This document shows, piece after piece, positions 14,148 to 34,430 of a DNA stretch of 64,000 nucleotides. The stretch comes from Botryllus schlosseri (taxonomy: Eukaryota). The notes under the pieces were generated by a model that searched no databases, had not been told where the DNA came from, and worked only from the letters and a program-made list of their open reading frames with translations. Position 1 is the first letter of the stretch. Each line of letters starts with the position of its first letter. The stretch lies in contig CM119372.1 in the NCBI GenBank assembly GCA_051294905.1, positions 26,972,001 to 27,036,000 on the forward strand, written 5' to 3'. The position numbers and the translations under genes were made by a program.

Positions 14148-14184
14148 ACACGAGCTTTCGGAGCTCCGCTCCTTCTTCAGGTGT
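14148..14184 (-). ncRNA. Minimal type I hammerhead ribozyme motif (PLE pLTR)
   Basis: Reverse complement of ACAC CTGAAGA A GGAGC GGA GCTCC GAAA GCTC GTGT. Confidence 0.85.
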
Positions 14185-14403
14185 TGAAATGAAAATAACG
14201 CAAAGCGATTCTGGATTCAAACATATACGCGTATTGTGACATCACAGAGAAGATAACTTTCAGGCCTAAAAAGTTTGTACCTTTGTGACGTCATAAACAA
14301 TATAATCGAGATTGTAATTTGAAAGGACTACAGCAAGTTATGGCACTGAAAATGAGGTTTGAAAGCGTATATACAATGATTAAATACATATGCACCGAAT
14401 TTC

Positions 14404-17163
14404 TCAACTGCAGATTCGCATGGTGTAATGTGACATGCACCCCCGATCTATATTAAGCCCTTGATGGAACGTATTGAATTGGTCGATGTATTTCTGTTCA
14501 GTGGCCTTGCGCAGGGTTGAGTCCTCGATGTTCCCGGCCAACACGTTAACAATCATATCATTTTCCGAGTGTCCCGCAGAAGAAAAGTGCTCACCGACAG
14601 GCTTCGATCTGTTTCGTTTAGAAATGTCATGTCGATGACTATTTATTCTTCTGTGGAGTGGTTGGCCAGTTTCGCCAATGTACCACGCAGCATCACATCC
14701 CTTTTTGCAACGAATTAAATATATCACATTATCAGATTTGCATGTGTACTGGCCTTTGGTCCTGTGATTAGTTTGTCCTCTAGTAATCACGGTGCTGGTG
14801 TCGAGAATTGGACACGTTTTACACGAAGTTTGTCCGCAATTTTCAACAACGTTTTTTTGTATTGTATGAGGTAATCTGCTTTGTACCAAAATGCTTCGCA
14901 AGTTTCGAGGTTGTCGGATGGCTAGAAGTGGCCTCCTTGGGAATGCCTCTTTACATTTTGGATCATTTTCCAAAATACGTTGGTGTTTCCGTAGCATCTT
15001 ACGAATCTTTTCCGCCCCGGGAAAATATGTGGTAACCATCGGCACTCTGTGTTCTTTTTTTCCATCACTACTACTGCTGCCAAGGAGTTCTTCTCGTGGA
15101 ACGTTGATAGCCTTGTTAATTTGGATCTTTGTCAGATTTTGATCATATCCAGAATTTATTAGTTCATCTCTTAGAACTTGCAGATGATAATCCCTGTCGT
15201 CTTTCTTTGAGCAAATACGATGTATACGAAGAGCCTTGCTGTATATTATGCCCTTTTTACAGTGCATCGGATGAAAGCTGTGATAGTTCAATATTTTACC
15301 GGAGTCCGTTGGTTTACGATAAAGTGATGTGGTAATAGAACTCTCTTCGATATTGACTAGCGTATCGAGGAATGGGACGGCGTTCGTCGAGTGTTCCATA
15401 GTTAGTCGGATATTTGGATGAAAGCCGTTTATGGACTCGTGAAACTGTTTTAGTGATTCTTCTCCGTGGGTCCATATCATAAATATATCATCGATATATC
15501 TGGTGTAGAATATAGGTCGCAATTTCTGGGTTTCCATAAAATCTTTTTCAAAATGATGCATGAAAATATTTGCATATTGTGGAGCAAATTTCGTGCCCAT
15601 TGCCGTACCTTGAAGTTGTAAAAAAATGTCGTTATTAAATTCGAAGGTATTATGCGTCAACGTGAATCTGATGAGCTCCATGATGCTTTCTTTCATTGGG
15701 TGACTACTTTCCTCCAAGGATCTTTCCACAGCTTTCATACCATCACTATGTGGAATGCTCGTGTACAGTGACGAAACGTCCATGGTAGCTAATATAGTGC
15801 CTGGTTTCAATTTCTTGAAATGCTTGAGTTTGTTCAAGAAATCTGTTGTGTCCCGGCAAAAACTGGGTGTGCTTTTCACCAATGGTTTGAGATGTGTTTC
15901 CACGTATCCAGATATTTTTTCTGTTAGCGTGTTGTTGCACGAGACAATGGGGCGTCCAGGAATGTTCGCCTTGTGTAGTTTCGGAAGCAGATAAAAGCGG
16001 GCGAGGCAAGGATCAGCAGGCTTATTGATTTTCGATTTCTCTTCTTCACACATGTCTAAAGATTTGATAATGTCCCTCAATTCCTTTGTGTGTTGTTTTG
16101 TTGGGTCATTTGCTAATTTTTTGTACGAATCGGTGTCGTTCAGCTGCCTGTAACCTTCTTCTAGGTAGTCTTTCAAATCCATAACGACTACTTTTCCTCC
16201 TTTATCTGCAGGCTTTACCACGATGTCATGGTCATGTTTTAGTTCCCTTATTGCTCTTCTCTGCTCATTTGTGAGATTTTCGTCGTGGTTTCTTTTCCAA
16301 TTGTCAGATTTGCTGATGAATGTTGCATTTAACTCATTGTGAAAACTTTCCAGATATTTATCCAAATTAGCGTTTTCGCCGTGTGGTGCCCTCCATTTTA
16401 TATTTTTCTTCGGTTTCTTGCTGAGTATTTGCTCATTTGTATTCTGGACATTTTGAGACCCATCGTTTTTCGAATTGGTATCGTAGAAATGAAATTCATT
16501 TCTCATTTTTCTGTCAAATTCGTCTGCGTCTCCGGCGAGCACGTACGGATCTAGTTTTTGTGCAGGACAGAATTTCAAATTCAGACTGAGCACTTCTATT
16601 TGAGATTGGCTCAGTGTTTTGCTAGACAGATTTGCGATAGCCAGATTTGATTCATTGCTTTCAGCTGTTGCACCAGGAGGCAGTGATATTTCAGATTGCT
16701 GTCTTTCCGTTAGTAATTGCGTAATTTTTTTCTCCTTCTGCATGATCATCTCTTTTACTTCCTTTGTCGAAATATTTCGAACTACTTCACGCAACTCTCG
16801 TTGTGATTCGGGATTGGCAACTAAATTTATGGTATACTCAATATCGTACCTGAGCTTTGCTCTGCTTCTGTAATGCACATCAGTCAGATGTGCCATCAAT
16901 TTCTTCGACATTCGTCGAGCCAAATTTTCGGAGTATGTTGTCCTGAAGGTGTTACGTAAAGGATTCTGAATTCGTAGACCCTTTGGGATCAGGTCGCGCT
17001 TTTTGCATTCGGACAGAAAAAAGATGTCCGCGTTTTTGCGAGCAATCTTCTTTGCGATTCTTTCCACTTTAACTCGGCATTTTCTGGTGTGATCCATAGT
17101 TGAATAATTCTTTGGGCCGATAGCAGACGATATAGATAATATTAGGATCTTGGTTGTTTTCAC
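14404..17163 (-). CDS. Penelope-like RT-GIY-YIG endonuclease polyprotein, copy 1 (intact)
   Basis: RT motifs KPADKG, FYLLPKLHK, GRPIVS, TMDVSSLYTSI, QLQGTAMG, RYIDDIF, PFLD; Cys linker CGQTSCKTC; endonuclease NVIYLIRC..C..YIGETG..L.RRI..HR. The track start is a GTG; the first ATG is at 17097 (897 aa). Confidence 0.96.
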   Translation of the reverse strand: MKTTKILILSISSAIGPKNYSTMDHTRKCRVKVERIAKKIARKNADIFFLSECKKRDLIPKGLRIQNPLRNTFRTTYSENLARRMSKKLMAHLTDVHYRSRAKLRYDIEYTINLVANPESQRELREVVRNISTKEVKEMIMQKEKKITQLLTERQQSEISLPPGATAESNESNLAIANLSSKTLSQSQIEVLSLNLKFCPAQKLDPYVLAGDADEFDRKMRNEFHFYDTNSKNDGSQNVQNTNEQILSKKPKKNIKWRAPHGENANLDKYLESFHNELNATFISKSDNWKRNHDENLTNEQRRAIRELKHDHDIVVKPADKGGKVVVMDLKDYLEEGYRQLNDTDSYKKLANDPTKQHTKELRDIIKSLDMCEEEKSKINKPADPCLARFYLLPKLHKANIPGRPIVSCNNTLTEKISGYVETHLKPLVKSTPSFCRDTTDFLNKLKHFKKLKPGTILATMDVSSLYTSIPHSDGMKAVERSLEESSHPMKESIMELIRFTLTHNTFEFNNDIFLQLQGTAMGTKFAPQYANIFMHHFEKDFMETQKLRPIFYTRYIDDIFMIWTHGEESLKQFHESINGFHPNIRLTMEHSTNAVPFLDTLVNIEESSITTSLYRKPTDSGKILNYHSFHPMHCKKGIIYSKALRIHRICSKKDDRDYHLQVLRDELINSGYDQNLTKIQINKAINVPREELLGSSSSDGKKEHRVPMVTTYFPGAEKIRKMLRKHQRILENDPKCKEAFPRRPLLAIRQPRNLRSILVQSRLPHTIQKNVVENCGQTSCKTCPILDTSTVITRGQTNHRTKGQYTCKSDNVIYLIRCKKGCDAAWYIGETGQPLHRRINSHRHDISKRNRSKPVGEHFSSAGHSENDMIVNVLAGNIEDSTLRKATEQKYIDQFNTFHQGLNIDRGCMSHYTMRICS

Positions 17164-17206
17164 ACCCTATTTACCGTCCACTTGCAACGTAATAATTTTA
17201 TTTATT

Positions 17207-17243
17207 ACACGAGCTTTCGGAGCTCCGCTCCTTCTTCAGGTGT
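17207..17243 (-). ncRNA. Minimal hammerhead ribozyme motif
   Basis: Same motif as 31335-31371, reverse complement. Confidence 0.85.
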
Positions 17244-17462
17244 TGAAATGAAAATAACGCAAAGCGATTCTGGATTCAAACATATACGCGTATTGTGACA
17301 TCACAGAGAAGATAACTTTCAGGCCTAAAAAGTTTGTACCTTTGTGACGTCATAAACAATATAATCGAGATTGTAATTTGAAAGGACTACAGCAAGTTAT
17401 GGCACTGAAAATGAGGTTTGAAAGCGTATATACAATGATTAAATACATATGCACCGAATTTC

Positions 17463-20400
17463 TCAACTGCAGATTCGCATGGTGTAATGTGACATGCACC
17501 CCCGATCTATATTAAGCCCTTGATGGAACGTATTGAATTGGTCGATGTATTTCTGTTCAGTGGCCTTGCGCAGGGTTGAGTCCTCGATGTTCCCGGCCAA
17601 CACGTTAACAATCATATCATTTTCCGAGTGTCCCGCAGAAGAAAAGTGCTCACCGACAGGCTTCGATCTGTTTCGTTTAGAAATGTCATGTCGATGACTA
17701 TTTATTCTTCTGTGGAGTGGTTGGCCAGTTTCGCCAATGTACCACGCAGCATCACATCCCTTTTTGCAACGAATTAAATATATCACATTATCAGATTTGC
17801 ATGTGTACTGGCCTTTGGTCCTGTGATTAGTTTGTCCTCTAGTAATCACGGTGCTGGTGTCGAGAATTGGACACGTCTTACACGAAGTTTGTCCGCAATT
17901 TTCAACAACGTTTTTTTGTATTGTATGAGGTAATCTGCTTTGTACCAAAATGCTTCGCAAGTTTCGAGGTTGTCGGATGGCTAGAAGTGGCCTCCTTGGG
18001 AATGCCTCTTTACATTTTGGATCATTTTCCAAAATACGTTGGTGTTTCCGTAGCATCTTACGAATCTTTTCCGCCCCGGGAAAATATGTGGTAACCATCG
18101 GCACTCTGTGTTCTTTTTTTCCATCACTACTACTGCTGCCAAGGAGTTCTTCTCGTGGAACGTTGATAGCCTTGTTAATTTGGATCTTTGTCAGATTTTG
18201 ATCATATCCAGAATTTATTAGTTCATCTCTTAGAACTTGCAGATGATAATCCCTGTCGTCTTTCTTTGAGCAAATACGATGTATACGAAGAGCCTTGCTG
18301 TATATTATGCCCTTTTTACAGTGCATCGGATGAAAGCTGTGATAGTTCAATATTTTACCGGAGTCCGTTGGTTTACGATAAAGTGATGTGGTGATAGAAC
18401 TCTCTTCGATATTGACTAGCGTATCGAGGAATGGGACGGCGTTCGTCGAGTGTTCCATAGTTAGTCGGATATTTGGATGAAAGCCGTTTATGGACTCGTG
18501 AAACTGTTTTAGTGATTCTTCTCCGTGGGTCCATATCATAAATATATCATCGATATATCTGGTGTAGAATATAGGTCGCAATTTCTGGGTTTCCATAAAA
18601 TCTTTTTCAAAATGATGCATGAAAATATTTGCATATTGTGGAGCAAATTTCGTGCCCATTGCCGTACCTTGAAGTTGTAAAAAAATGTCGTTATTAAATT
18701 CGAAGGTATTATGCGTCAACGTGAATCTGATGAGCTCCATGATGCTTTCTTTCATTGGGTGACTACTTTCCTCCAAGGATCTTTCCACAGCTTTCATACC
18801 ATCACTATGTGGAATGCTCGTGTATAGTGACGAAACGTCCATGGTAGCTAATATAGTGCCTGGTTTCAATTTCTTGAAATGCTTGAGTTTGTTCAAGAAA
18901 TCTGTTGTGTCCCGGCAAAAACTGGGTGTGCTTTTCACCAATGGTTTGAGATGTGTTTCCACGTATCCAGATATTTTTTCTGTTAGCGTGTTGTTGCACG
19001 AGACAATGGGGCGTCCAGGAATGTTCGCCTTTACTTCGTTTCCATGCTCGGCCGATGGGCCCATTTTCGAGAGACTCGGCCGACGAACGAGAGAATTTTG
19101 TTGCGCATTTACAGTGATGCACACCCACGTCGGCCGACTCGTCGGCCATCTAGTAAATCCTTCGGCTTAGCCCTTCGGCCATGCTTGCGCTGTGTCTTCG
19201 ATTAGCTAATTGGTATTCGCTACTTACAATACACTTTTCGTATCAAATTAACCATGGCTGCACTCCGGACGGATCTTGGACGCCTTGAGAAACCAAGAAT
19301 TATGATCGCAACGGAATTTAGTAGTACCGGTACTGCTACGAATTACCCGTAGGCTACCGAAATCTTCGCGATCTGATCACATACGCTGCTGCCACAATTC
19401 GAAGGTTTGCGTTCTATGGTGCATGGATACAATACAAACTATACCGCTTGACCACAAACTAGGTGAACTTATTCACATTCCCCTGGTAAGCAAATCATCG
19501 ACAGGACACTGGACGTTCATGTCTGAATCATGACGAAGAAACAGTAGTACCGGTAGACTACTGGAGAAGTTACTATTCTGTGCTCGAAATTATTGGACCA
19601 CGATATCCCATATCTATATCCCCCACATACTAAGATATGCCACCAATTTTCATCTTTTATCCATCTTATTTTATCTTCTGTTAGTTTTAAGCAATTGGTT
19701 CATCGTGACCATTTTACATGTTGGATGCATTTCGTGTTCAAGGTCAAAGCGTGTTGTTTGATTGAATGACCGCTACAAGTCTTTTCGGCTCATTCCTACC
19801 GAGTCATTTATCGCAATCTTCTGATTATTATGAAATTGTTACTGAGTAAGTAAGCCAAAAACGTCATCGCGATCGCTTCGCCCACCTAGTTCGGCCAAGT
19901 CACGGTTGGGTTACGTCTGCTCATGGAAACACGGCCGACATGTACAACGCATGCGTCATGGCCTTTCGGCCGACCGTCGGCCGAGCATGGAAACGAAGTA
20001 TATGGTGCATGGATACAATACAAACTATACCGCTTGACCACAAACTAGGTGAACTTATTCACATTCCCCTGGTAAGCAAATCATCGACAGGACACTGGAC
20101 GTTCATGTCTGAATCATGACGAAGAAACAGTAGTACCGGTAGACTACTGGAGAAGTTACTATTCTGTGCTCGAAATTATTGGACCACGATATCCCATATC
20201 TATATCCCCCACATACTAAGATATGCCACCAATTTTCATCTTTTATCCATCTTATTTTATCTTCTGTTAGTTTTAAGCAATTGGTTCATCGTGACCATTT
20301 TACATGTTGGATGCATTTCGTGTTCAAGGTCAAAGCGTGTTGTTTGATTGAATGACCGCTACAAGTCTTTTCGGCTCATTCCTACCGAGTCATTTATCGC

Positions 20401-21780
20401 AATCTTCTGATTATTATGAAATTGTTACTGAGTAAGTAAGCCAAAAACGTCATCGCGATCGCTGCGCCCACCTAGTTCGGCCAAGTCACGGTTGGGTTAC
20501 GTCTGCTCATGGAAACACGGCCGACATGTACAACGCATGCGTCATGGCCTTTCGGCCGACCGTCGGCCGAGCATGGAAACGAAGTAATAGTGTAGTTTCG
20601 GAAGCAGATAAAAGCGGGCGAGGCAAGGATCAGCAGGCTTATTGATTTTCGATTTCTCTTCTTCACACATGTCTAAAGATTTGATAATGTCCCTCAATTC
20701 CTTTGTGTGTTGTTTTGTTGGGTCATTTGCTAATTTTTTGTACGAATCGGTGTCGTTCAGCTGCCTGTAACCTTCTTCTAGGTAGTCTTTCAAATCCATA
20801 ACGACTACTTTTCCTCCTTTATCTGCAGGCTTTACCACGATGTCATGGTCATGTTTTAGTTCCCTTATTGCTCTTCTCTGCTCATTTGTGAGATTTTCGT
20901 CGTGGTTTCTTTTCCAATTGTCAGATTTGCTGATGAATGTTGCATTTAACTCATTGTGAAAACTTTCCAGATATTTATCCAAATTAGCGTTTTCGCCGTG
21001 TGGTGCCCTCCATTTTATATTTTTCTTCGGTTTCTTGCTGAGTATTTGCTCATTTGTATTCTGGACATTTTGAGACCCATCGTTTTTCGAATTGGTATCG
21101 TAGAAATGAAATTCATTTCTCATTTTTCTGTCAAATTCGTCTGCGTCTCCGGCGAGCACGTACGGATCTAGTTTTTGTGCAGGACAGAATTTCAAATTCA
21201 GACTGAGCACTTCTATTTGAGATTGGCTCAGTGTTTTGCTAGACAGATTTGCGATAGCCAGATTTGATTCATTGCTTTCAGCTGTTGCACCAGGAGGCAG
21301 TGATATTTCAGATTGCTGTCTTTCCGTTAGTAATTGCGTAATTTTTTTCTCCTTCTGCATGATCATCTCTTTTACTTCCTTTGTCGAAATATTTCGAACT
21401 ACTTCACGCAACTCTCGTTGTGATTCGGGATTGGCAACTAAATTTATGGTATACTCAATATCGTACCTGAGCTTTGCTCTGCTTCTGTAATGCACATCAG
21501 TCAGATGTGCCATCAATTTCTTCGACATTCGTCGAGCCAAATTTTCGGAGTATGTTGTCCTGAAGGTGTTACGTAAAGGATTCTGAATTCGTAGACCCTT
21601 TGGGATCAGGTCGCGCTTTTTGCATTCGGACAGAAAAAAGATGTCCGCGTTTTTGCGAGCAATCTTCTTTGCGATTCTTTCCACTTTAACTCGGCATTTT
21701 CTGGTGTGATCCATAGTTGAATAATTCTTTGGGCCGATAGCAGACGATATAGATAATATTAGGATCTTGGTTGTTTTCAC
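17463..21780 (-). pseudogene. Penelope-like ORF copy 2, interrupted by a 1558-bp insertion
   Basis: N-terminal part 20590-21780 (to ...LLPKLH) and C-terminal part 17463-19031 (KANIPGRP...) rejoin exactly when 19032-20589 is removed. Confidence 0.95.
19032..20586. mobile_element. 969-bp MITE (PIF/Harbinger-like TIR) plus tandem duplication of its right 586 bp
   Basis: TIR TACTTCGTTTCCATGCTCGGCCGA / TCGGCCGAGCATGGAAACGAAGTA. The right TIR occurs twice (ending 20000 and 20586); 19415-20000 is repeated at 20001-20586. TCGGCC subterminal repeats. The superfamily assignment is tentative. Confidence 0.88.
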
Positions 21781-21823
21781 ACCCTATTTACCGTCCACTT
21801 GCAACGTAATAATTTTATTTATT

Positions 21824-21860
21824 ACACGAGCTTTCGGAGCTCCGCTCCTTCTTCAGGTGT
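21824..21860 (-). ncRNA. Minimal hammerhead ribozyme motif
   Basis: Same motif as 31335-31371, reverse complement. Confidence 0.85.
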
Positions 21861-22079
21861 TGAAATGAAAATAACGCAAAGCGATTCTGGATTCAAACAT
21901 ATACGCGTATTGTGACATCACAGAGAAGATAACTTTCAGGCCTAAAAAGTTTGTACCTTTGTGACGTCATAAACAATATAATCGAGATTGTAATTTGAAA
22001 GGACTACAGCAAGTTATGGCACTGAAAATGAGGTTTGAAAGCGTATATACAATGATTAAATACATATGCACCGAATTTC

Positions 22080-24839
22080 TCAACTGCAGATTCGCATGGT
22101 GTAATGTGACATGCACCCCCGATCTATATTAAGCCCTTGATGGAACGTATTGAATTGGTCGATGTATTTCTGTTCAGTGGCCTTGCGCAGGGTTGAGTCC
22201 TCGATGTTCCCGGCCAACACGTTAACAATCATATCATTTTCCGAGTGTCCCGCAGAAGAAAAGTGCTCACCGACAGGCTTCGATCTGTTTCGTTTAGAAA
22301 TGTCATGTCGATGACTATTTATTCTTCTGTGGAGTGGTTGGCCAGTTTCGCCAATGTACCACGCAGCATCACATCCCTTTTTGCAACGAATTAAATATAT
22401 CACATTATCAGATTTGCATGTGTACTGGCCTTTGGTCCTGTGATTAGTTTGTCCTCTAGTAATCACGGTGCTGGTGTCGAGAATTGGACACGTCTTACAC
22501 GAAGTTTGTCCGCAATTTTCAACAACGTTTTTTTGTATTGTATGAGGTAATCTGCTTTGTACCAAAATGCTTCGCAAGTTTCGAGGTTGTCGGATGGCTA
22601 GAAGTGGCCTCCTTGGGAATGCCTCTTTACATTTTGGATCATTTTCCAAAATACGTTGGTGTTTCCGTAGCATCTTACGAATCTTTTCCGCCCCGGGAAA
22701 ATATGTGGTAACCATCGGCACTCTGTGTTCTTTTTTTCCATCACTACTACTGCTGCCAAGGAGTTCTTCTCGTGGAACGTTGATAGCCTTGTTAATTTGG
22801 ATCTTTGTCAGATTTTGATCATATCCAGAATTTATTAGTTCATCTCTTAGAACTTGCAGATGATAATCCCTGTCGTCTTTCTTTGAGCAAATACGATGTA
22901 TACGAAGAGCCTTGCTGTATATTATGCCCTTTTTACAGTGCATCGGATGAAAGCTGTGATAGTTCAATATTTTACCGGAGTCCGTTGGTTTACGATAAAG
23001 TGATGTGGTAATAGAACTCTCTTCGATATTGACTAGCGTATCGAGGAATGGGACGGCGTTCGTCGAGTGTTCCATAGTTAGTCGGATATTTGGATGAAAG
23101 CCGTTTATGGACTCGTGAAACTGTTTTAGTGATTCTTCTCCGTGGGTCCATATCATAAATATATCATCGATATATCTGGTGTAGAATATAGGTCGCAATT
23201 TCTGGGTTTCCATAAAATCTTTTTCAAAATGATGCATGAAAATATTTGCATATTGTGGAGCAAATTTCGTGCCCATTGCCGTACCTTGAAGTTGTAAAAA
23301 AATGTCGTTATTAAATTCGAAGGTATTATGCGTCAACGTGAATCTGATGAGCTCCATGATGCTTTCTTTCATTGGGTGACTACTTTCCTCCAAGGATCTT
23401 TCCACAGCTTTCATACCATCACTATGTGGAATGCTCGTGTATAGTGACGAAACGTCCATGGTAGCTAATATAGTGCCTGGTTTCAATTTCTTGAAATGCT
23501 TGAGTTTGTTCAAGAAATCTGTTGTGTCCCGGCAAAAACTGGGTGTGCTTTTCACCAATGGTTTGAGATGTGTTTCCACGTATCCAGATATTTTTTCTGT
23601 TAGCGTGTTGTTGCACGAGACAATGGGGCGTCCAGGAATGTTCGCCTTGTGTAGTTTCGGAAGCAGATAAAAGCGGGCGAGGCAAGGATCAGCAGGCTTA
23701 TTGATTTTCGATTTCTCTTCTTCACACATGTCTAAAGATTTGATAATGTCCCTCAATTCCTTTGTGTGTTGTTTTGTTGGGTCATTTGCTAATTTTTTGT
23801 ACGAATCGGTGTCGTTCAGCTGCCTGTAACCTTCTTCTAGGTAGTCTTTCAAATCCATAACGACTACTTTTCCTCCTTTATCTGCAGGCTTTACCACGAT
23901 GTCATGGTCATGTTTTAGTTCCCTTATTGCTCTTCTCTGCTCATTTGTGAGATTTTCGTCGTGGTTTCTTTTCCAATTGTCAGATTTGCTGATGAATGTT
24001 GCATTTAACTCATTGTGAAAACTTTCCAGATATTTATCCAAATTAGCGTTTTCGCCGTGTGGTGCCCTCCATTTTATATTTTTCTTCGGTTTCTTGCTGA
24101 GTATTTGCTCATTTGTATTCTGGACATTTTGAGACCCATCGTTTTTCGAATTGGTATCGTAGAAATGAAATTCATTTCTCATTTTTCTGTCAAATTCGTC
24201 TGCGTCTCCGGCGAGCACGTACGGATCTAGTTTTTGTGCAGGACAGAATTTCAAATTCAGACTGAGCACTTCTATTTGAGATTGGCTCAGTGTTTTGCTA
24301 GACAGATTTGCGATAGCCAGATTTGATTCATTGCTTTCAGCTGTTGCACCAGGAGGCAGTGATATTTCAGATTGCTGTCTTTCCGTTAGTAATTGCGTAA
24401 TTTTTTTCTCCTTCTGCATGATCATCTCTTTTACTTCCTTTGTCGAAATATTTCGAACTACTTCACGCAACTCTCGTTGTGATTCGGGATTGGCAACTAA
24501 ATTTATGGTATACTCAATATCGTACCTGAGCTTTGCTCTGCTTCTGTAATGCACATCAGTCAGATGTGCCATCAATTTCTTCGACATTCGTCGAGCCAAA
24601 TTTTCGGAGTATGTTGTCCTGAAGGTGTTACGTAAAGGATTCTGAATTCGTAGACCCTTTGGGATCAGGTCGCGCTTTTTGCATTCGGACAGAAAAAAGA
24701 TGTCCGCGTTTTTGCGAGCAATCTTCTTTGCGATTCTTTCCACTTTAACTCGGCATTTTCTGGTGTGATCCATAGTTGAATAATTCTTTGGGCCGATAGC
24801 AGACGATATAGATAATATTAGGATCTTGGTTGTTTTCAC
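22080..24839 (-). CDS. Penelope-like RT-GIY-YIG polyprotein, copy 3 (intact)
   Basis: Translation matches copy 1; first ATG at 24773. Confidence 0.96.
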   Translation of the reverse strand: MKTTKILILSISSAIGPKNYSTMDHTRKCRVKVERIAKKIARKNADIFFLSECKKRDLIPKGLRIQNPLRNTFRTTYSENLARRMSKKLMAHLTDVHYRSRAKLRYDIEYTINLVANPESQRELREVVRNISTKEVKEMIMQKEKKITQLLTERQQSEISLPPGATAESNESNLAIANLSSKTLSQSQIEVLSLNLKFCPAQKLDPYVLAGDADEFDRKMRNEFHFYDTNSKNDGSQNVQNTNEQILSKKPKKNIKWRAPHGENANLDKYLESFHNELNATFISKSDNWKRNHDENLTNEQRRAIRELKHDHDIVVKPADKGGKVVVMDLKDYLEEGYRQLNDTDSYKKLANDPTKQHTKELRDIIKSLDMCEEEKSKINKPADPCLARFYLLPKLHKANIPGRPIVSCNNTLTEKISGYVETHLKPLVKSTPSFCRDTTDFLNKLKHFKKLKPGTILATMDVSSLYTSIPHSDGMKAVERSLEESSHPMKESIMELIRFTLTHNTFEFNNDIFLQLQGTAMGTKFAPQYANIFMHHFEKDFMETQKLRPIFYTRYIDDIFMIWTHGEESLKQFHESINGFHPNIRLTMEHSTNAVPFLDTLVNIEESSITTSLYRKPTDSGKILNYHSFHPMHCKKGIIYSKALRIHRICSKKDDRDYHLQVLRDELINSGYDQNLTKIQINKAINVPREELLGSSSSDGKKEHRVPMVTTYFPGAEKIRKMLRKHQRILENDPKCKEAFPRRPLLAIRQPRNLRSILVQSRLPHTIQKNVVENCGQTSCKTCPILDTSTVITRGQTNHRTKGQYTCKSDNVIYLIRCKKGCDAAWYIGETGQPLHRRINSHRHDISKRNRSKPVGEHFSSAGHSENDMIVNVLAGNIEDSTLRKATEQKYIDQFNTFHQGLNIDRGCMSHYTMRICS

Positions 24840-24882
24840 ACCCTATTTACCGTCCACTTGCAACGTAATAATTTTATTTATT

Positions 24883-24919
24883 ACACGAGCTTTCGGAGCT
24901 CCGCTCCTTCTTCAGGTGT
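24883..24919 (-). ncRNA. Minimal hammerhead ribozyme motif
   Basis: Same motif as 31335-31371, reverse complement. Confidence 0.85.
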
Positions 24920-25138: not shown

Positions 25139-27898
25139 TCAACTGCAGATTCGCATGGTGTAATGTGACATGCACCCCCGATCTATATTAAGCCCTTGAT
25201 GGAACGTATTGAATTGGTCGATGTATTTCTGTTCAGTGGCCTTGCGCAGGGTTGAGTCCTCGATGTTCCCGGCCAACACGTTAACAATCATATCATTTTC
25301 CGAGTGTCCCGCAGAAGAAAAGTGCTCACCGACAGGCTTCGATCTGTTTCGTTTAGAAATGTCATGTCGATGACTATTTATTCTTCTGTGGAGTGGTTGG
25401 CCAGTTTCGCCAATGTACCACGCAGCATCACATCCCTTTTTGCAACGAATTAAATATATCACATTATCAGATTTGCATGTGTACTGGCCTTTGGTCCTGT
25501 GATTAGTTTGTCCTCTAGTAATCACGGTGCTGGTGTCGAGAATTGGACACGTCTTACACGAAGTTTGTCCGCAATTTTCAACAACGTTTTTTTGTATTGT
25601 ATGAGGTAATCTGCTTTGTACCAAAATGCTTCGCAAGTTTCGAGGTTGTCGGATGGCTAGAAGTGGCCTCCTTGGGAATGCCTCTTTACATTTTGGATCA
25701 TTTTCCAAAATACGTTGGTGTTTCCGTAGCATCTTACGAATCTTTTCCGCCCCGGGAAAATATGTGGTAACCATCGGCACTCTGTGTTCTTTTTTTCCAT
25801 CACTACTACTGCTGCCAAGGAGTTCTTCTCGTGGAACGTTGATAGCCTTGTTAATTTGGATCTTTGTCAGATTTTGATCATATCCAGAATTTATTAGTTC
25901 ATCTCTTAGAACTTGCAGATGATAATCCCTGTCGTCTTTCTTTGAGCAAATACGATGTATACGAAGAGCCTTGCTGTATATTATGCCCTTTTTACAGTGC
26001 ATCGGATGAAAGCTGTGATAGTTCAATATTTTACCGGAGTCCGTTGGTTTACGATAAAGTGATGTGGTAATAGAACTCTCTTCGATATTGACTAGCGTAT
26101 CGAGGAATGGGACGGCGTTCGTCGAGTGTTCCATAGTTAGTCGGATATTTGGATGAAAGCCGTTTATGGACTCGTGAAACTGTTTTAGTGATTCTTCTCC
26201 GTGGGTCCATATCATAAATATATCATCGATATATCTGGTGTAGAATATAGGTCGCAATTTCTGGGTTTCCATAAAATCTTTTTCAAAATGATGCATGAAA
26301 ATATTTGCATATTGTGGAGCAAATTTCGTGCCCATTGCCGTACCTTGAAGTTGTAAAAAAATGTCGTTATTAAATTCGAAGGTATTATGCGTCAACGTGA
26401 ATCTGATGAGCTCCATGATGCTTTCTTTCATTGGGTGACTACTTTCCTCCAAGGATCTTTCCACAGCTTTCATACCATCACTATGTGGAATGCTCGTGTA
26501 TAGTGACGAAACGTCCATGGTAGCTAATATAGTGCCTGGTTTCAATTTCTTGAAATGCTTGAGTTTGTTCAAGAAATCTGTTGTGTCCCGGCAAAAACTG
26601 GGTGTGCTTTTCACCAATGGTTTGAGATGTGTTTCCACGTATCCAGATATTTTTTCTGTTAGCGTGTTGTTGCACGAGACAATGGGGCGTCCAGGAATGT
26701 TCGCCTTGTGTAGTTTCGGAAGCAGATAAAAGCGGGCGAGGCAAGGATCAGCAGGCTTATTGATTTTCGATTTCTCTTCTTCACACATGTCTAAAGATTT
26801 GATAATGTCCCTCAATTCCTTTGTGTGTTGTTTTGTTGGGTCATTTGCTAATTTTTTGTACGAATCGGTGTCGTTCAGCTGCCTGTAACCTTCTTCTAGG
26901 TAGTCTTTCAAATCCATAACGACTACTTTTCCTCCTTTATCTGCAGGCTTTACCACGATGTCATGGTCATGTTTTAGTTCCCTTATTGCTCTTCTCTGCT
27001 CATTTGTGAGATTTTCGTCGTGGTTTCTTTTCCAATTGTCAGATTTGCTGATGAATGTTGCATTTAACTCATTGTGAAAACTTTCCAGATATTTATCCAA
27101 ATTAGCGTTTTCGCCGTGTGGTGCCCTCCATTTTATATTTTTCTTCGGTTTCTTGCTGAGTATTTGCTCATTTGTATTCTGGACATTTTGAGACCCATCG
27201 TTTTTCGAATTGGTATCGTAGAAATGAAATTCATTTCTCATTTTTCTGTCAAATTCGTCTGCGTCTCCGGCGAGCACGTACGGATCTAGTTTTTGTGCAG
27301 GACAGAATTTCAAATTCAGACTGAGCACTTCTATTTGAGATTGGCTCAGTGTTTTGCTAGACAGATTTGCGATAGCCAGATTTGATTCATTGCTTTCAGC
27401 TGTTGCACCAGGAGGCAGTGATATTTCAGATTGCTGTCTTTCCGTTAGTAATTGCGTAATTTTTTTCTCCTTCTGCATGATCATCTCTTTTACTTCCTTT
27501 GTCGAAATATTTCGAACTACTTCACGCAACTCTCGTTGTGATTCGGGATTGGCAACTAAATTTATGGTATACTCAATATCGTACCTGAGCTTTGCTCTGC
27601 TTCTGTAATGCACATCAGTCAGATGTGCCATCAATTTCTTCGACATTCGTCGAGCCAAATTTTCGGAGTATGTTGTCCTGAAGGTGTTACGTAAAGGATT
27701 CTGAATTCGTAGACCCTTTGGGATCAGGTCGCGCTTTTTGCATTCGGACAGAAAAAAGATGTCCGCGTTTTTGCGAGCAATCTTCTTTGCGATTCTTTCC
27801 ACTTTAACTCGGCATTTTCTGGTGTGATCCATAGTTGAATAATTCTTTGGGCCGATAGCAGACGATATAGATAATATTAGGATCTTGGTTGTTTTCAC
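25139..27898 (-). CDS. Penelope-like RT-GIY-YIG polyprotein, copy 4 (intact)
   Basis: Translation matches copy 1; first ATG at 27832. Confidence 0.96.
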   Translation of the reverse strand: MKTTKILILSISSAIGPKNYSTMDHTRKCRVKVERIAKKIARKNADIFFLSECKKRDLIPKGLRIQNPLRNTFRTTYSENLARRMSKKLMAHLTDVHYRSRAKLRYDIEYTINLVANPESQRELREVVRNISTKEVKEMIMQKEKKITQLLTERQQSEISLPPGATAESNESNLAIANLSSKTLSQSQIEVLSLNLKFCPAQKLDPYVLAGDADEFDRKMRNEFHFYDTNSKNDGSQNVQNTNEQILSKKPKKNIKWRAPHGENANLDKYLESFHNELNATFISKSDNWKRNHDENLTNEQRRAIRELKHDHDIVVKPADKGGKVVVMDLKDYLEEGYRQLNDTDSYKKLANDPTKQHTKELRDIIKSLDMCEEEKSKINKPADPCLARFYLLPKLHKANIPGRPIVSCNNTLTEKISGYVETHLKPLVKSTPSFCRDTTDFLNKLKHFKKLKPGTILATMDVSSLYTSIPHSDGMKAVERSLEESSHPMKESIMELIRFTLTHNTFEFNNDIFLQLQGTAMGTKFAPQYANIFMHHFEKDFMETQKLRPIFYTRYIDDIFMIWTHGEESLKQFHESINGFHPNIRLTMEHSTNAVPFLDTLVNIEESSITTSLYRKPTDSGKILNYHSFHPMHCKKGIIYSKALRIHRICSKKDDRDYHLQVLRDELINSGYDQNLTKIQINKAINVPREELLGSSSSDGKKEHRVPMVTTYFPGAEKIRKMLRKHQRILENDPKCKEAFPRRPLLAIRQPRNLRSILVQSRLPHTIQKNVVENCGQTSCKTCPILDTSTVITRGQTNHRTKGQYTCKSDNVIYLIRCKKGCDAAWYIGETGQPLHRRINSHRHDISKRNRSKPVGEHFSSAGHSENDMIVNVLAGNIEDSTLRKATEQKYIDQFNTFHQGLNIDRGCMSHYTMRICS

Positions 27899-27941
27899 AC
27901 CCTATTTACCGTCCACTTGCAACGTAATAATTTTATTTATT

Positions 27942-27978
27942 ACACGAGCTTTCGGAGCTCCGCTCCTTCTTCAGGTGT
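27942..27978 (-). ncRNA. Minimal hammerhead ribozyme motif
   Basis: Same motif as 31335-31371, reverse complement. Confidence 0.85.
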
Positions 27979-28197
27979 TGAAATGAAAATAACGCAAAGC
28001 GATTCTGGATTCAAACATATACGCGTATTGTGACATCACAGAGAAGATAACTTTCAGGCCTAAAAAGTTTGTACCTTTGTGACGTCATAAACAATATAAT
28101 CGAGATTGTAATTTGAAAGGACTACAGCAAGTTATGGCACTGAAAATGAGGTTTGAAAGCGTATATACAATGATTAAATACATATGCACCGAATTTC

Positions 28198-29402
28198 TCA
28201 ACTGCAGATTCGCATGGTGTAATGTGACATGCACCCCCGATCTATATTAAGCCCTTGATGGAATGTATTGAATTGGTCGATGTATTTCTGTTCAGTGGCC
28301 TTGCGCAGGGTTGAGTCCTCGATGTTCCCGGCCAACACGTTAACAATCATATCATTTTCCGAGTGTCCCGCAGAAGAAAAGTGCTCACCGACAGGCTTCG
28401 ATCTGTTTCGTTTAGAAATGTCATGTCGATGACTATTTATTCTTCTGTGGAGTGGTTGGCCAGTTTCGCCAATGTACCACGCAGCATCACATCCCTTTTT
28501 GCAACGAATTAAATATATCACATTATCAGATTTGCATGTGTACTGGCCTTTGGTCCTGTGATTAGTTTGTCCTCTAGTAATCACGGTGCTGGTGTCGAGA
28601 ATTGGACACGTCTTACACGAAGTTTGTCCGCAATTTTCAACAACGTTTTTTTGTATTGTATGAGGTAATCTGCTTTGTACCAAAATGCTTCGCAAGTTTC
28701 GAGGTTGTCGGATGGCTAGAAGTGGCCTCCTTGGGAATGCCTCTTTACATTTTGGATCATTTTCCAAAATACGTTGGTGTTTCCGTAGCATCTTACGAAT
28801 CTTTTCCGCCCCGGGAAAATATGTGGTAACCATCGGCACTCTGTGTTCTTTTTTTCCATCACTACTACTGCTGCCAAGGAGTTCTTCTCGTGGAACGTTG
28901 ATAGCCTTGTTAATTTGGATCTTTGTCAGATTTTGATCATATCCAGAATTTATTAGTTCATCTCTTAGAACTTGCAGATGATAATCCCCGTCGTCTTTCT
29001 TTGAGCAAATACGATGTATACGAAGAGCCTTGCTGTATATTATGCCCTTTTTACAGTGCATCGGATGAAAGCTGTGATAGTTCAATATTTTACCGGAGTC
29101 CGTTGGTTTACGATAAAGTGATGTGGTAATAGAACTCTCTTCGATATTGACTAGCGTATCGAGGAATGGGACGGCGTTCGTCGAGTGTTCCATAGTTAGT
29201 CGGATATTTGGATGAAAGCCGTTTATGGACTCGTGAAACTGTTTTAGTGATTCTTCTCCGTGGGTCCATATCATAAATATATCATCGATATATCTGGTGT
29301 AGAATATAGGTCGCAATTTCTGGGTTTCCATAAAATCTTTTTCAAAATGATGCATGAAAATATTTGCATATTGTGGAGCAAATTTCGTGCCCATTGCCGT
29401 AC
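28198..29402 (-). pseudogene. 5'-truncated Penelope-like ORF, copy 5 (from TAMGTKF onward)
   Basis: Matches the C-terminal ~400 codons; truncated at the inversion junction; one R>G change (KDDGDY). Confidence 0.93.
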
Positions 29403-29403: not shown

Positions 29404-31115
29404 TAGCAAATGACCCAACAAAACAACACACAAAGGAATTGAGGGACATTATCAAATCTTTAGACATGTGTGAAGAAGAGAAATCGAAAATCAATAAGCC
29501 TGCTGATCCTTGCCTCGCCCGCTTTTATCTGCTTCCGAAACTACACAAGGCGAACATTCCTGGACGCCCCATTGTCTCGTGCAACAACACGCTAACAGAA
29601 AAAATATCTGGATACGTGGAAACACATCTCAAACCATTGGTGAAAAGCACACCCAGTTTTTGCCGGGACACAACAGATTTCTTGAACAAACTCAAGCATT
29701 TCAAGAAATTGAAACCAGGCACTATATTAGCTACCATGGACGTTTCGTCACTATACACGAGCATTCCACATAGTGATGGTATGAAAGCTGTGGAAAGATC
29801 CTTGGAGGAAAGTAGTCACCCAATGAAAGAAAGCATCATGGAGCTCATCAGATTCACGTTGACGCATAATACCTTCGAATTTAATAACGACATTTTTTTA
29901 CAACTTCAAGGTACGGCAATGGGCACGAAATTTGCTCCACAATATGCAAATATTTTCATGCATCATTTTGAAAAAGATTTTATGGAAACCCAGAAATTGC
30001 GACCTATATTCTACACCAGATATATCGATGATATATTTATGATATGGACCCACGGAGAAGAATCACTAAAACAGTTTCACGAGTCCATAAACGGCTTTCA
30101 TCCAAATATCCGACTAACTATGGAACACTCGACGAACGCCGTCCCATTCCTCGATACGCTAGTCAATATCGAAGAGAGTTCTATTACCACATCACTTTAT
30201 CGTAAACCAACGGACTCCGGTAAAATATTGAACTATCACAGCTTTCATCCGATGCACTGTAAAAAGGGCATAATATACAGCAAGGCTCTTCGTATACATC
30301 GTATTTGCTCAAAGAAAGACGACAGGGATTATCATCTGCAAGTTCTAAGAGATGAACTAATAAATTCTGGATATGATCAAAATCTGACAAAGATCCAAAT
30401 TAACAAGGCTATCAACGTTCCACGAGAAGAACTCCTTGGCAGCAGTAGTAGTGATGGAAAAAAAGAACACAGAGTGCCGATGGTTACCACATATTTTCCC
30501 GGGGCGGAAAAGATTCGTAAGATGCTACGGAAACACCAACGTATTTTGGAAAATGATCCAAAATGTAAAGAGGCATTCCCAAGGAGGCCACTTCTAGCCA
30601 TCCGACAACCTCGAAACTTGCGAAGCATTTTGGTACAAAGCAGATTACCTCATACAATACAAAAAAACGTTGTTGAAAATTGCGGACAAACTTCGTGTAA
30701 GACGTGTCCAATTCTCGACACCAGCACCGTGATTACTAGAGGACAAACTAATCACAGGACCAAAGGCCAGTACACATGCAAATCTGATAATGTGATATAT
30801 TTAATTCGTTGCAAAAAGGGATGTGATGCTGCGTGGTACATTGGCGAAACTGGCCAACCACTCCACAGAAGAATAAATAGTCATCGACATGACATTTCTA
30901 AACGAAACAGATCGAAGCCTGTCGGTGAGCACTTTTCTTCTGCGGGACACTCGGAAAATGATATGATTGTTAACGTGTTGGCCGGGAACATCGAGGACTC
31001 AACCCTGCGCAAGGCCACTGAACAGAAATACATCGACCAATTCAATACGTTCCATCAAGGGCTTAATATAGATCGGGGGTGCATGTCACATTACACCATG
31101 CGAATCTGCAGTTGA
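29404..31115 (+). pseudogene. 5'-truncated Penelope-like ORF, copy 6 (from ANDPTK onward)
   Basis: Matches the C-terminal ~570 codons in the opposite orientation; starts at the inversion junction. Confidence 0.93.
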
Positions 31116-31334
31116 GAAATTCGGTGCATATGTATTTAATCATTGTATATACGCTTTCAAACCTCATTTTCAGTGCCATAACTTGCTGTAGTCCTTTCAA
31201 ATTACAATCTCGATTATATTGTTTATGACGTCACAAAGGTACAAACTTTTTAGGCCTGAAAGTTATCTTCTCTGTGATGTCACAATACGCGTATATGTTT
31301 GAATCCAGAATCGCTTTGCGTTATTTTCATTTCA

Positions 31335-31371
31335 ACACCTGAAGAAGGAGCGGAGCTCCGAAAGCTCGTGT
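31335..31371 (+). ncRNA. Minimal type I hammerhead ribozyme motif
   Basis: Stem I ACAC/GUGU; core CUGAAGA; stem II GGAGC-GGA-GCUCC; GAAA; palindromic AGCU in place of stem III; predicted cleavage after CUC at 31367. Confidence 0.87.
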
Positions 31372-31414
31372 AATAAATAAAATTATTACGTTGCAAGTGG
31401 ACGGTAAATAGGGT

Positions 31415-34174
31415 GTGAAAACAACCAAGATCCTAATATTATCTATATCGTCTGCTATCGGCCCAAAGAATTATTCAACTATGGATCACACCAGAAAATG
31501 CCGAGTTAAAGTGGAAAGAATCGCAAAGAAGATTGCTCGCAAAAACGCGGACATCTTTTTTCTGTCCGAATGCAAAAAGCGCGACCTGATCCCAAAGGGT
31601 CTACGAATTCAGAATCCTTTACGTAACACCTTCAGGACAACATACTCCGAAAATTTGGCTCGACGAATGTCGAAGAAATTGATGGCACATCTGACTGATG
31701 TGCATTACAGAAGCAGAGCAAAGCTCAGGTACGATATTGAGTATACCATAAATTTAGTTGCCAATCCCGAATCACAACGAGAGTTGCGTGAAGTAGTTCG
31801 AAATATTTCGACAAAGGAAGTAAAAGAGATGATCATGCAGAAGGAGAAAAAAATTACGCAATTACTAACGGAAAGACAGCAATCTGAAATATCACTGCCT
31901 CCTGGTGCAACAGCTGAAAGCAATGAATCAAATCTGGCTATCGCAAATCTGTCTAGCAAAACACTGAGCCAATCTCAAATAGAAGTGCTCAGTCTGAATT
32001 TGAAATTCTGTCCTGCACAAAAACTAGATCCGTACGTGCTCGCCGGAGACGCAGACGAATTTGACAGAAAAATGAGAAATGAATTTCATTTCTACGATAC
32101 CAATTCGAAAAACGATGGGTCTCAAAATGTCCAGAATACAAATGAGCAAATACTCAGCAAGAAACCGAAGAAAAATATAAAATGGAGGGCACCACACGGC
32201 GAAAACGCTAATTTGGATAAATATCTGGAAAGTTTTCACAATGAGTTAAATGCAACATTCATCAGCAAATCTGACAATTGGAAAAGAAACCACGACGAAA
32301 ATCTCACAAATGAGCAGAGAAGAGCAATAAGGGAACTAAAACATGACCATGACATCGTGGTAAAGCCTGCAGATAAAGGAGGAAAAGTAGTCGTTATGGA
32401 TTTGAAAGACTACCTAGAAGAAGGTTACAGGCAGCTGAACGACACCGATTCGTACAAAAAATTAGCAAATGACCCAACAAAACAACACACAAAGGAATTG
32501 AGGGACATTATCAAATCTTTAGACATGTGTGAAGAAGAGAAATCGAAAATCAATAAGCCTGCTGATCCTTGCCTCGCCCGCTTTTATCTGCTTCCGAAAC
32601 TACACAAGGCGAACATTCCTGGACGCCCCATTGTCTCGTGCAACAACACGCTAACAGAAAAAATATCTGGATACGTGGAAACACATCTCAAACCATTGGT
32701 GAAAAGCACACCCAGTTTTTGCCGGGACACAACAGATTTCTTGAACAAACTCAAGCATTTCAAGAAATTGAAACCAGGCACTATATTAGCTACCATGGAC
32801 GTTTCGTCACTATACACGAGCATTCCACATAGTGATGGTATGAAAGCTGTGGAAAGATCCTTGGAGGAAAGTAGTCACCCAATGAAAGAAAGCATCATGG
32901 AGCTCATCAGATTCACGTTGACGCATAATACCTTCGAATTTAATAACGACATTTTTTTACAACTTCAAGGTACGGCAATGGGCACGAAATTTGCTCCACA
33001 ATATGCAAATATTTTCATGCATCATTTTGAAAAAGATTTTATGGAAACCCAGAAATTGCGACCTATATTCTACACCAGATATATCGATGATATATTTATG
33101 ATATGGACCCACGGAGAAGAATCACTAAAACAGTTTCACGAGTCCATAAACGGCTTTCATCCAAATATCCGACTAACTATGGAACACTCGACGAACGCCG
33201 TCCCATTCCTCGATACGCTAGTCAATATCGAAGAGAGTTCTATTACCACATCACTTTATCGTAAACCAACGGACTCCGGTAAAATATTGAACTATCACAG
33301 CTTTCATCCGATGCACTGTAAAAAGGGCATAATATACAGCAAGGCTCTTCGTATACATCGTATTTGCTCAAAGAAAGACGACAGGGATTATCATCTGCAA
33401 GTTCTAAGAGATGAACTAATAAATTCTGGATATGATCAAAATCTGACAAAGATCCAAATTAACAAGGCTATCAACGTTCCACGAGAAGAACTCCTTGGCA
33501 GCAGTAGTAGTGATGGAAAAAAAGAACACAGAGTGCCGATGGTTACCACATATTTTCCCGGGGCGGAAAAGATTCGTAAGATGCTACGGAAACACCAACG
33601 TATTTTGGAAAATGATCCAAAATGTAAAGAGGCATTCCCAAGGAGGCCACTTCTAGCCATCCGACAACCTCGAAACTTGCGAAGCATTTTGGTACAAAGC
33701 AGATTACCTCATACAATACAAAAAAACGTTGTTGAAAATTGCGGACAAACTTCGTGTAAGACGTGTCCAATTCTCGACACCAGCACCGTGATTACTAGAG
33801 GACAAACTAATCACAGGACCAAAGGCCAGTACACATGCAAATCTGATAATGTGATATATTTAATTCGTTGCAAAAAGGGATGTGATGCTGCGTGGTACAT
33901 TGGCGAAACTGGCCAACCACTCCACAGAAGAATAAATAGTCATCGACATGACATTTCTAAACGAAACAGATCGAAGCCTGTCGGTGAGCACTTTTCTTCT
34001 GCGGGACACTCGGAAAATGATATGATTGTTAACGTGTTGGCCGGGAACATCGAGGACTCAACCCTGCGCAAGGCCACTGAACAGAAATACATCGACCAAT
34101 TCAATACGTTCCATCAAGGGCTTAATATAGATCGGGGGTGCATGTCACATTACACCATGCGAATCTGCAGTTGA
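31415..34174 (+). CDS. Penelope-like RT-GIY-YIG polyprotein, copy 7 (intact)
   Basis: Translation matches copy 1; first ATG at 31481. Confidence 0.96.
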   Translation: MKTTKILILSISSAIGPKNYSTMDHTRKCRVKVERIAKKIARKNADIFFLSECKKRDLIPKGLRIQNPLRNTFRTTYSENLARRMSKKLMAHLTDVHYRSRAKLRYDIEYTINLVANPESQRELREVVRNISTKEVKEMIMQKEKKITQLLTERQQSEISLPPGATAESNESNLAIANLSSKTLSQSQIEVLSLNLKFCPAQKLDPYVLAGDADEFDRKMRNEFHFYDTNSKNDGSQNVQNTNEQILSKKPKKNIKWRAPHGENANLDKYLESFHNELNATFISKSDNWKRNHDENLTNEQRRAIRELKHDHDIVVKPADKGGKVVVMDLKDYLEEGYRQLNDTDSYKKLANDPTKQHTKELRDIIKSLDMCEEEKSKINKPADPCLARFYLLPKLHKANIPGRPIVSCNNTLTEKISGYVETHLKPLVKSTPSFCRDTTDFLNKLKHFKKLKPGTILATMDVSSLYTSIPHSDGMKAVERSLEESSHPMKESIMELIRFTLTHNTFEFNNDIFLQLQGTAMGTKFAPQYANIFMHHFEKDFMETQKLRPIFYTRYIDDIFMIWTHGEESLKQFHESINGFHPNIRLTMEHSTNAVPFLDTLVNIEESSITTSLYRKPTDSGKILNYHSFHPMHCKKGIIYSKALRIHRICSKKDDRDYHLQVLRDELINSGYDQNLTKIQINKAINVPREELLGSSSSDGKKEHRVPMVTTYFPGAEKIRKMLRKHQRILENDPKCKEAFPRRPLLAIRQPRNLRSILVQSRLPHTIQKNVVENCGQTSCKTCPILDTSTVITRGQTNHRTKGQYTCKSDNVIYLIRCKKGCDAAWYIGETGQPLHRRINSHRHDISKRNRSKPVGEHFSSAGHSENDMIVNVLAGNIEDSTLRKATEQKYIDQFNTFHQGLNIDRGCMSHYTMRICS

Positions 34175-34393
34175 GAAATTCGGTGCATATGTATTTAATC
34201 ATTGTATATACGCTTTCAAACCTCATTTTCAGTGCCATAACTTGCTGTAGTCCTTTCAAATTACAATCTCGATTATATTGTTTATGACGTCACAAAGGTA
34301 CAAACTTTTTAGGCCTGAAAGTTATCTTCTCTGTGATGTCACAATACGCGTATATGTTTGAATCCAGAATCGCTTTGCGTTATTTTCATTTCA

Positions 34394-34430
34394 ACACCTG
34401 AAGAAGGAGCGGAGCTCCGAAAGCTCGTGT
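34394..34430 (+). ncRNA. Minimal hammerhead ribozyme motif (terminal pLTR)
   Basis: Identical to 31335-31371, 3059 bp downstream. Confidence 0.85.

Follow-up and report, generated by a model that had tools for sequence, protein, structure and literature searches.

Probable linear and possible circular RNA templates of a hammerhead-bearing Penelope-like element in Botryllus schlosseri

A 64,000-nucleotide stretch of the Botryllus schlosseri genome (assembly GCA_051294905.1, contig CM119372.1, positions 26,972,001 to 27,036,000; hereafter the window, with positions counted from its first letter) carries a repeated unit of what is almost certainly a Penelope-like element (PLE), with a hammerhead ribozyme motif in each unit. 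Mapping the ends of the family's copies across the genome points to two forms of template. About half of the family's arms appear to have been copied from a linear RNA that starts some 39 nucleotides (nt) upstream of the predicted hammerhead cut and is left uncut, and arms longer than one unit are best explained by a template without ends. As a tentative scenario, possible but on balance doubtful as a whole, we propose that the dimeric hammerhead of a coding RNA turns that RNA into a circle, which is copied by rolling-circle reverse transcription (RT) from both ends of a double nick, here for 4.5 turns on one side and 1.7 on the other; the linear RNA would yield only solo-hammerhead stubs, and only the circle would move the open reading frame (ORF) and rebuild the pseudo-long terminal repeat (pLTR). 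The element type, the hammerhead and the circle idea are already in print, the last still as a hypothesis; the end-mapping is the new part of this analysis.

Structure of the insertion

The locus consists of two head-to-head arms of 4.50 and 1.68 units within one 12-bp target-site duplication (TSD), the whole insertion measuring 20.4 kb. The TSD copies (ACTATTAATTAC, 14066-14077, and 34537-34548, both plus strand) find support in the empty site seen in reads. Aligned to the unit, the left arm (14078-29402, minus strand) comprises 4.50 seamless 3059-bp units, or 13,767 bp without an insert described below; it is 5'-truncated at unit position 1603, and its 3' end lies at +74 (RT start site A), counting the first nucleotide past the predicted cut as +1. 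After a single base that fits neither arm (29403), the right arm (29404-34541, plus strand) is 5'-truncated at unit position 1096, shows no difference from the reference unit and ends at +110 to +115 (RT start site B, the "tail"). The first five nucleotides of the right TSD (ACTAT) also fit element positions +111 to +115, a possible primer-template microhomology. Five private transitions, all in the left arm, separate the units over the 18.9 kb compared. Reads join the left flank straight to the right TSD 14 times in run X23 and 10 times in run X24; since the flank is a high-copy repeat these may come from paralogues, but they show an empty target all the same. The locus is very probably the product of a single insertion event at one site.

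An earlier note on this sequence, made from its letters, had described seven matching hammerhead motifs, one per unit of a tandem array. The motifs are exact and identical over 37 nt, with no eighth copy in the window at up to five mismatches. Two lie on the plus strand (31335-31371, found by motif search and descriptor, with the predicted cut C31367^G31368; and a terminal copy at 34394-34430, cut 34426^34427) and five on the minus strand (27942-27978, 24883-24919, 21824-21860, 17207-17243 and, terminal, 14148-14184, with +1 at 27945, 24886, 21827, 17210 and 14151). They are to be read as one element copied and not as seven independent lines of evidence. Each unit does hold a single motif, but the 299-nt spacer given for it counts to a GTG; the first AUG, at 31481, lies 113 nt past the cut, at RT start site B. 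The array is also not a plain tandem, as the motif-to-motif spacings (3059, 4617, 3059, 3059, 3393 across the inversion, and 3059) reflect: besides the inversion, one unit of 4617 nt (17211-21827, minus) bears a 1558-bp insert, leaving only four clean cut-to-cut monomers of 3059 nt, at 31368-34426 (plus; the candidate circle) and at 24887-27945, 21828-24886 and 14152-17210 (minus). The proposed 3059-nt monomer carrying the whole ORF was confirmed, an intact ORF of 897 amino acids (31481-34174, plus) lying inside 31368-34426. Translation gives the identical protein at 25139-27832, 22080-24773 and, with two silent changes, 14404-17097 (all minus), and alignment places a further ORF copy, broken by the insert, at 17463-21714 (minus).

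The insert (19032-20589, delimited by alignment and genome search) occurs in one unit only and consists of a 969-bp miniature inverted-repeat transposable element (MITE), then the right-hand 586 bp of a second copy (nesting at TAT) and finally ATA. Its 3-bp flanks are mismatched and its internal junction is unique in the genome. The MITE family, which we take to be PIF/Harbinger-like, has at least 40 near-identical copies with 3-bp A/T-rich TSDs, often adjoining GTG or CAC. A template switch during reverse transcription is disfavoured, because both MITE termini are intact, the flank has the GTG preferred by other copies, and unequal 3-bp flanks recur in 2 of the 10 other copies that have both ends; a nested MITE composite that transposed later fits the sequence better.

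Ends of family copies across the genome

Searching the 496-Mb assembly (219 contigs) with the hammerhead pattern gave 67 matches in 45 clusters: 36 single motifs, seven pairs, the window locus and one cluster of ten (C4). For end-mapping we anchored on positions +1 to +33, an anchor blind to the 5' end, which returned 119 matches, 100 of them listed. The 79 terminal arms among the matches listed and the window's right arm make the 80 arms counted here; nine internal junctions, nine C4 satellite repeats and two C17 duplicates were left out, and at least two duplicate pairs remain within the 80 (L007/L008 and probably L052/L069).

The 5' ends of these arms pile up ahead of the hammerhead. Nine lie at 0 to -25, 37 at -26 to -46 (mode -39) and 12 at -47 to -150, the rest being longer or censored; the hazard of ending within -26 to -46 is 7.4-fold that around it (p 1e-13, for an interval picked after seeing the data). 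No arm ends at the cut, and the two that come within 5 nt of it are both fold-back junctions. Position -39 (31329 on the plus strand, recurring at each junction; the putative template 5' end, placed from this pile-up) is the A of TCATTT or TCACTT, replaced by G in the 76% subfamily, and the sequence there resembles the initiator-like TCACT of rotifer pLTRs (Arkhipova 2013, PMC3846280). Direct repeats of at least 7 nt flank 18 of the 42 short copies shown, such as L102, which starts exactly at -39. Because 37 of 80 arms stop at -26 to -46 and none at the cut, we infer a linear RNA that starts near -39 and is copied with its hammerhead uncut, and such an RNA would be a main template, accounting for about half of the family's arms. 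Splicing or trans-splicing as the source of the -39 ends is unsupported, the short copies having no common upstream sequence except L070 and L085. These two stop at -57 and have some 20 nt of upstream sequence in common, unlike the references; perhaps this is another subfamily's pLTR or a shared target repeat.

The 3' ends are bimodal, with 41 arms ending at +60 to +81, 37 at +104 to +120 and two elsewhere. The two peaks correspond to the pair of RT start sites between which the tail lies in PAc, a Poseidon element of lizards of the genus Anolis (PMC11167929). All 11 inverted pairs fetched (L029, L052, L053, L057, L059, L061-L063, L073, L092 and L112), like the window, join one early-site arm (+53 to +78) to one late-site arm (+98 to +117), a rule that suggests fixed asymmetric priming by a dimer of the RT-endonuclease.

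Two irregularities were seen among the copies. On C7, the arm at L002 4560-4998 ends 439 nt into the next unit and not at a start site, probably through a later deletion or insertion. On C17 (2.25-2.68 Mb; a 3-Mb contig) the same PLE fragments recur at 16.1-kb spacing, together with a near-identical pair 77 kb apart, and these recurrences read as segmental or tandem duplications.

Templates of the long arms

Had a unit-length linear RNA templated the long copies, -39 would be the expected start of full-length ones. Eight arms exceed one unit: both arms of the window, those at C14, C5 and C7, and three of the older subfamily. None of the eight stops at -26 to -46 on its second pass, compared with 37 of 71 on the first (P 0.003, assuming that the passes are alike and independent). 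This bears directly on a model without a covalent circle, in which the reverse transcriptase would copy the terminal redundancy (-39 to +74/115) to a strong stop and jump repeatedly to the 3' end of a linear unit RNA, the hammerhead dimer perhaps only holding two RNA ends together. Such jumping would give both the -39 pile-up and the seamless junctions from one template, and it needs no cleavage, as in PAc (Frangieh et al. 2024, PMC11167929); it would also suit the Naiad PLEs, which lack canonical hammerheads. It predicts a stop at -39 in every round, however, where the long arms stop in 0 of 8 (or 1 of 9, if the older copy discussed below is counted), and a Pfam search of the ORF detected no RNase H domain. 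We consider this model rather unlikely.

Tandem partners are far more alike than loci are. They differ at five positions in 18.9 kb in the window, 4/2859 at C14, 2/1596 at C5 and 1/486 plus 0/439 at C7, that is, by 0-0.2% within these four young loci against 0.75-1.6% between full-length loci; all 12 differences are transitions. All partners share locus-private alleles (eight in the window, in every unit of both arms; nine, six and one at the others), and no inter-unit difference recurs between the four loci, so each array descends from one unit, as the earlier note had supposed for this one. Adjacent independent insertions were rejected for the four loci, given the seamless junctions and these shared alleles.

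A linear read-through transcript of a multi-unit donor that is absent from the assembly, being on another haplotype or lost, would also give long arms, and Frangieh et al. propose a multi-copy mRNA template (PMC11167929). The window's alleles do stem from a missing donor: +37G occurs only in its own seven motif copies, so that donor and progeny are both absent from the assembly, and the nearest other copy differs from the window unit at 12 of 2381 positions. The donor of five or more tandem units that the earlier note named as a refutation was not found in the assembly, and among the 45 clusters no other ORF-bearing locus has more than two hammerheads; among the 39 of 495 candidates scored, a lower bound, no other ORF-bearing locus exceeds 1.97 units. 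The C4 cluster of ten was rejected as donor, since it is a satellite remnant of about 190 bp repeated at 1.5-2.3-kb spacing with no ORF (8.2 kb, 5 of 10 copies read). Linear copying, moreover, only shortens arrays, leaving the one-unit origin of each of the four loci unexplained, and the transcript would have to reach at least 13.8 kb. We think a long linear donor unlikely.

The C4 repeat is of interest in itself: L051 (C4, 28.36-28.39 Mb), a two-armed remnant of a PLE that measures about 190 bp and keeps its hammerhead intact, occurs ten times within a satellite whose spacings are mostly 1663 bp, give or take multiples of about 210 bp.

Growth at the DNA level was considered as well, the left arm landing as about 1.5 units and reaching 4.5 by unequal exchange or replication slippage. 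At 4.5 units it is an outlier, the next-longest arm having 1.97, and simulated stepwise expansion leaves no shared single-nucleotide polymorphism (SNP) in 33-38% of runs if events are timed uniformly and in 84-87% if they come early. Nevertheless neither any of the five SNPs nor the MITE is common to more than one window unit, three events would have struck one arm and none the other within about 0.03% divergence, and the first step beyond one unit would still need another mechanism; we regard this explanation as improbable. An assembly artefact in the unit count seems very improbable indeed. The units are 99.9-100% identical, as judged from the assembled sequence, and PLE structures trouble assemblies (Craig et al. 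2021, PMC8557442), but private SNPs mark the units, and unique anchors (left flank, MITE, inversion junction and right flank) follow one another at distances of 5.0, 8.8 and 5.1 kb.

The hammerhead motif and its conservation

The motif comprises stem I (ACAC/GUGU), CUGAAGA, one extra A, a 5-bp stem II (GGAGC-GGA-GCUCC), GAAA and a stem III formed by the palindrome AGCU. With the core CUGANGA/GAAA/UH, stems I and II and a palindromic stem III, it has the minimal type I anatomy of PLE hammerheads, in which stem III needs a second copy, and the earlier reading on this point is upheld. A strict descriptor matched seven times in the window and not once in 300 unit-like random sequences.

Conservation across subfamilies is the best sign of selection on the putative ribozyme. 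In the older subfamily, with about 76% unit identity, all 33 constrained hammerhead positions are kept (chance 0.76^33 = 1e-4) and three of the four free positions (N7 and loop II) have changed; across the genome's subfamilies the hammerhead varies mainly at these same places. The covariance-model check proposed earlier was negative, an Rfam search giving no hammerhead match at the gathering score or at E up to 10, and the 28 hammerhead variants listed include no two-sided compensatory change. Single-strand folding is no better than in shuffled sequences (z -1.1 to -1.6), so the case for the hammerhead rests on core pattern and conservation and not on folding energy.

Identity of the element

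The 897-amino-acid protein has DKG at 298, the RT motif YIDD at 534, a CX4CxxC linker (CGQTSCKTC) at 754 and a GIY-YIG endonuclease pattern (VIY..C..C..YIG) with its cysteine pair at 791-808; GEH at 835-837 supplies a histidine, the second histidine of the CCHH finger being read by eye from the protein sequence. Pfam matched RVT_1 (E 2.5e-13) and gave no GIY-YIG match for this protein, and none of the solved structures matched it. Of 8000 candidates scored, 943 were homologous at E up to 1e-20, with identity reaching 46-51% in the best, and many of the 120 listed carry PF01541, presumably the GIY-YIG family.

By the definitions of Craig et al. 2021, applied to its sequence features, the element reads as a canonical endonuclease-bearing PLE of the Neptune/Nematis type. 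It has one ORF with RT plus a C-terminal GIY-YIG domain, DKG, and a CCHH finger with two cysteines between GIY and YIG, and the CX2-5CxxC linker stands between RT and endonuclease. Structurally there are the pLTR made by a partial tandem, the inverted 5'-truncated copy, the tail at one end and a variable TSD. The Penelope/Poseidon clade is ruled out by the cysteine linker, Naiad/Chlamys by the C-terminal endonuclease and the hammerhead, and a non-LTR retrozyme by a 3059-nt unit with an intact ORF, compared with non-coding units of 170-400 nt. As raw observations, the insertion targets seen in the family are AT-rich and mostly not microsatellites; Neptune elements are biased towards microsatellites. 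The best explanation of the element's state is that it is very young and autonomous.

Other features of the window

An LTR-retrotransposon-like element at 57890-62080 (minus strand) has 135-bp direct repeats that are 97.8% alike and holds protease-RT in one frame and RNase H-integrase in another. A 263-bp inverted repeat, 95% alike (50068-50330 and 53960-54222), encloses about 3.6 kb and is possibly a DNA transposon.

Discussion

The window can be read as one insertion by two-ended target-primed reverse transcription. The endonuclease would nick both strands 12 bp apart in AT-rich DNA, priming would take place at RT start site A (+74) for one target 3' end and at site B (+110 to +115) for its partner, and the two cDNAs would be joined head to head; the resulting structure is observed at the locus, and the chemistry is taken by analogy from PAc. 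The family would draw on two template forms, the linear uncleaved RNA and a template without a 5' end. On the linear RNA from about -39, the reverse transcriptase would run off the end and leave solo-hammerhead insertions of 100-160 bp. In a unit transcript, the 5' and 3' hammerheads would pair through AGCU and cleave with help from protein, and ligation of the cleaved unit would give a 3059-nt circle that puts the RT start element behind the ORF. Going round it, the enzyme would produce seamless arms of 1.5, 1.7, 2.0 or, here, 4.5 units and rebuild the pLTR promoter. Initiation by the PAc RT depends on RNA lying downstream of the start site (PMC11167929); such RNA is absent at the 3' end of an insertion, so if the same holds here only a rejoined or internal junction could launch copying of the ORF. 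A hammerhead-made circle is favoured in that it supplies both this junction and an endless template, and we give a circle as template of the long arms slightly less than an even chance.

Two statements of the earlier note change. It had held that only read-through of a tandem array could bring two motifs together; with the putative RNA start placed at -39, ahead of the hammerhead, two of them are already present in an ordinary transcript from pLTR to pLTR, and two molecules could also pair. Its copying from cut-out circular monomers does not fit the half or so of the family's arms that appear to derive from linear uncleaved RNA, and it may keep its place for the long arms, which lack second-pass stops at -39.

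Several observations weigh against the circle. Cleavage and circularisation of this element are predicted from its sequence. No pile of RNA ends was seen at the cut, at a depth too shallow to reveal such ends or circles: coverage of the element was 0-2 in two of the single-cell runs and nil in another (reads recovered numbered 0 in X21, 128 in X23 and 103 in X24, mostly on the flank). Because no arm begins at +1, cleaved linear monomers have left no trace. The hammerhead is predicted to be mostly misfolded in its native context: stem I forms in less than 4% of the predicted ensemble in 7 of the 9 stretches folded, and the predicted two-copy minimum-energy fold is a stem-II swap (-27.7 kcal/mol) and not the double hammerhead (-19.3). 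The hammerhead of PAc depended on protein, its mutants left in vitro insertion unchanged, and RNA-seq of PAc showed no ends at the cut (PMC11167929); Naiad PLEs make the same tandems without canonical hammerheads (PMC8557442). The second-pass comparison falls to 0 of 5 (P 0.025) with young arms only, and the older copy L114, which starts at -54 and runs into the ORF, makes it 1 of 9 (P 0.014) if taken as a stop. The lack of shared SNPs is weak evidence, because stepwise expansion yields the same in 33-38% of simulations. Set against all this, the end-mapping and the long single-site concatemer tilt modestly toward the circle.

The cycle itself, put forward in the earlier note as autonomous and retrozyme-like, is not a new system. 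Cervera and de la Peña (2014, PMC4209133) described minimal dimer-type PLE hammerheads and proposed hammerhead cleavage, circle ligation and more-than-unit reverse transcription for PLE tandems, and a 2019 review (PMC6765202) repeats the circle hypothesis. Their hammerheads share with this one a short stem I, an extra nucleotide before stem II, a palindromic stem III and a mostly solo occurrence. The present proposal is the same in principle; here the solo copies are traced to one shared 5' end near -39, which serves as the test for the long arms. Our literature search, which covered main texts and few subscription papers, returned no strand-transfer model and no 5'-end pile-up at the hammerhead.

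Compared with the Neptune/Nematis PLEs of Craig et al. (PMC8557442), the element has the same ORF of RT and GIY-YIG with DKG, CX2-5CxxC linker and endonuclease cysteine pair, and it agrees in structure: a partial tandem forming the pLTR, a 5'-truncated inverted copy, a tail of 30-40 bp at one end only and a hammerhead within the pLTR. It differs in its 4.5-unit arm within one TSD-flanked insertion, beyond the usual partial tandem, and in a target of AT-rich repeat DNA in place of a (TA)n microsatellite. PAc likewise has two internal RT start sites bounding the tail, an AT-rich target, both target strands cut and extended, and an AC-rich loop near the start sites (PMC11167929), but it belongs to the Poseidon clade without the cysteine linker and its ORF starts inside the hammerhead. 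Here, with the first AUG past the cut, the cut-to-cut monomer holds the whole ORF. Animal non-LTR retrozymes (PMC7229834; Li et al. 2026, bioRxiv 10.64898/2026.07.22.740005) also carry a type I hammerhead once per tandem unit; target-primed rolling reverse transcription of a circle has been proposed for them, and they are thought to be mobilised by, and derived from, PLEs. Theirs are non-coding units of 170-400 nt with demonstrated circular RNAs, whereas here the unit is 3059 nt, autonomous and equipped with a minimal hammerhead, and its circle is a candidate.

How PLEs make tandems is a stated open question: pLTR regeneration has been described as having no obvious mechanism (Schostak et al. 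2008, PMC2377424), and the function of the hammerhead in endonuclease-bearing PLEs has been called unclear (PMC8557442). The family described here makes the question directly testable: its four intact ORFs encode the same protein, its two RT start sites are mapped, the RNA 5' end is inferred to lie at -39, and the predicted cut precedes the AUG. A circle would place the crossover at the cut, strand jumping at -39. If the circle is real, a protein-coding retroelement travels as a ribozyme-made circular RNA and PLEs are linked mechanistically to retrozymes. This would explain how PLEs regenerate their pLTRs and would give the PLE hammerhead a function; the solo stubs would be the raw material of retrozymes, and a hammerhead-bearing satellite such as L051 could be a route to a retrozyme-like array.

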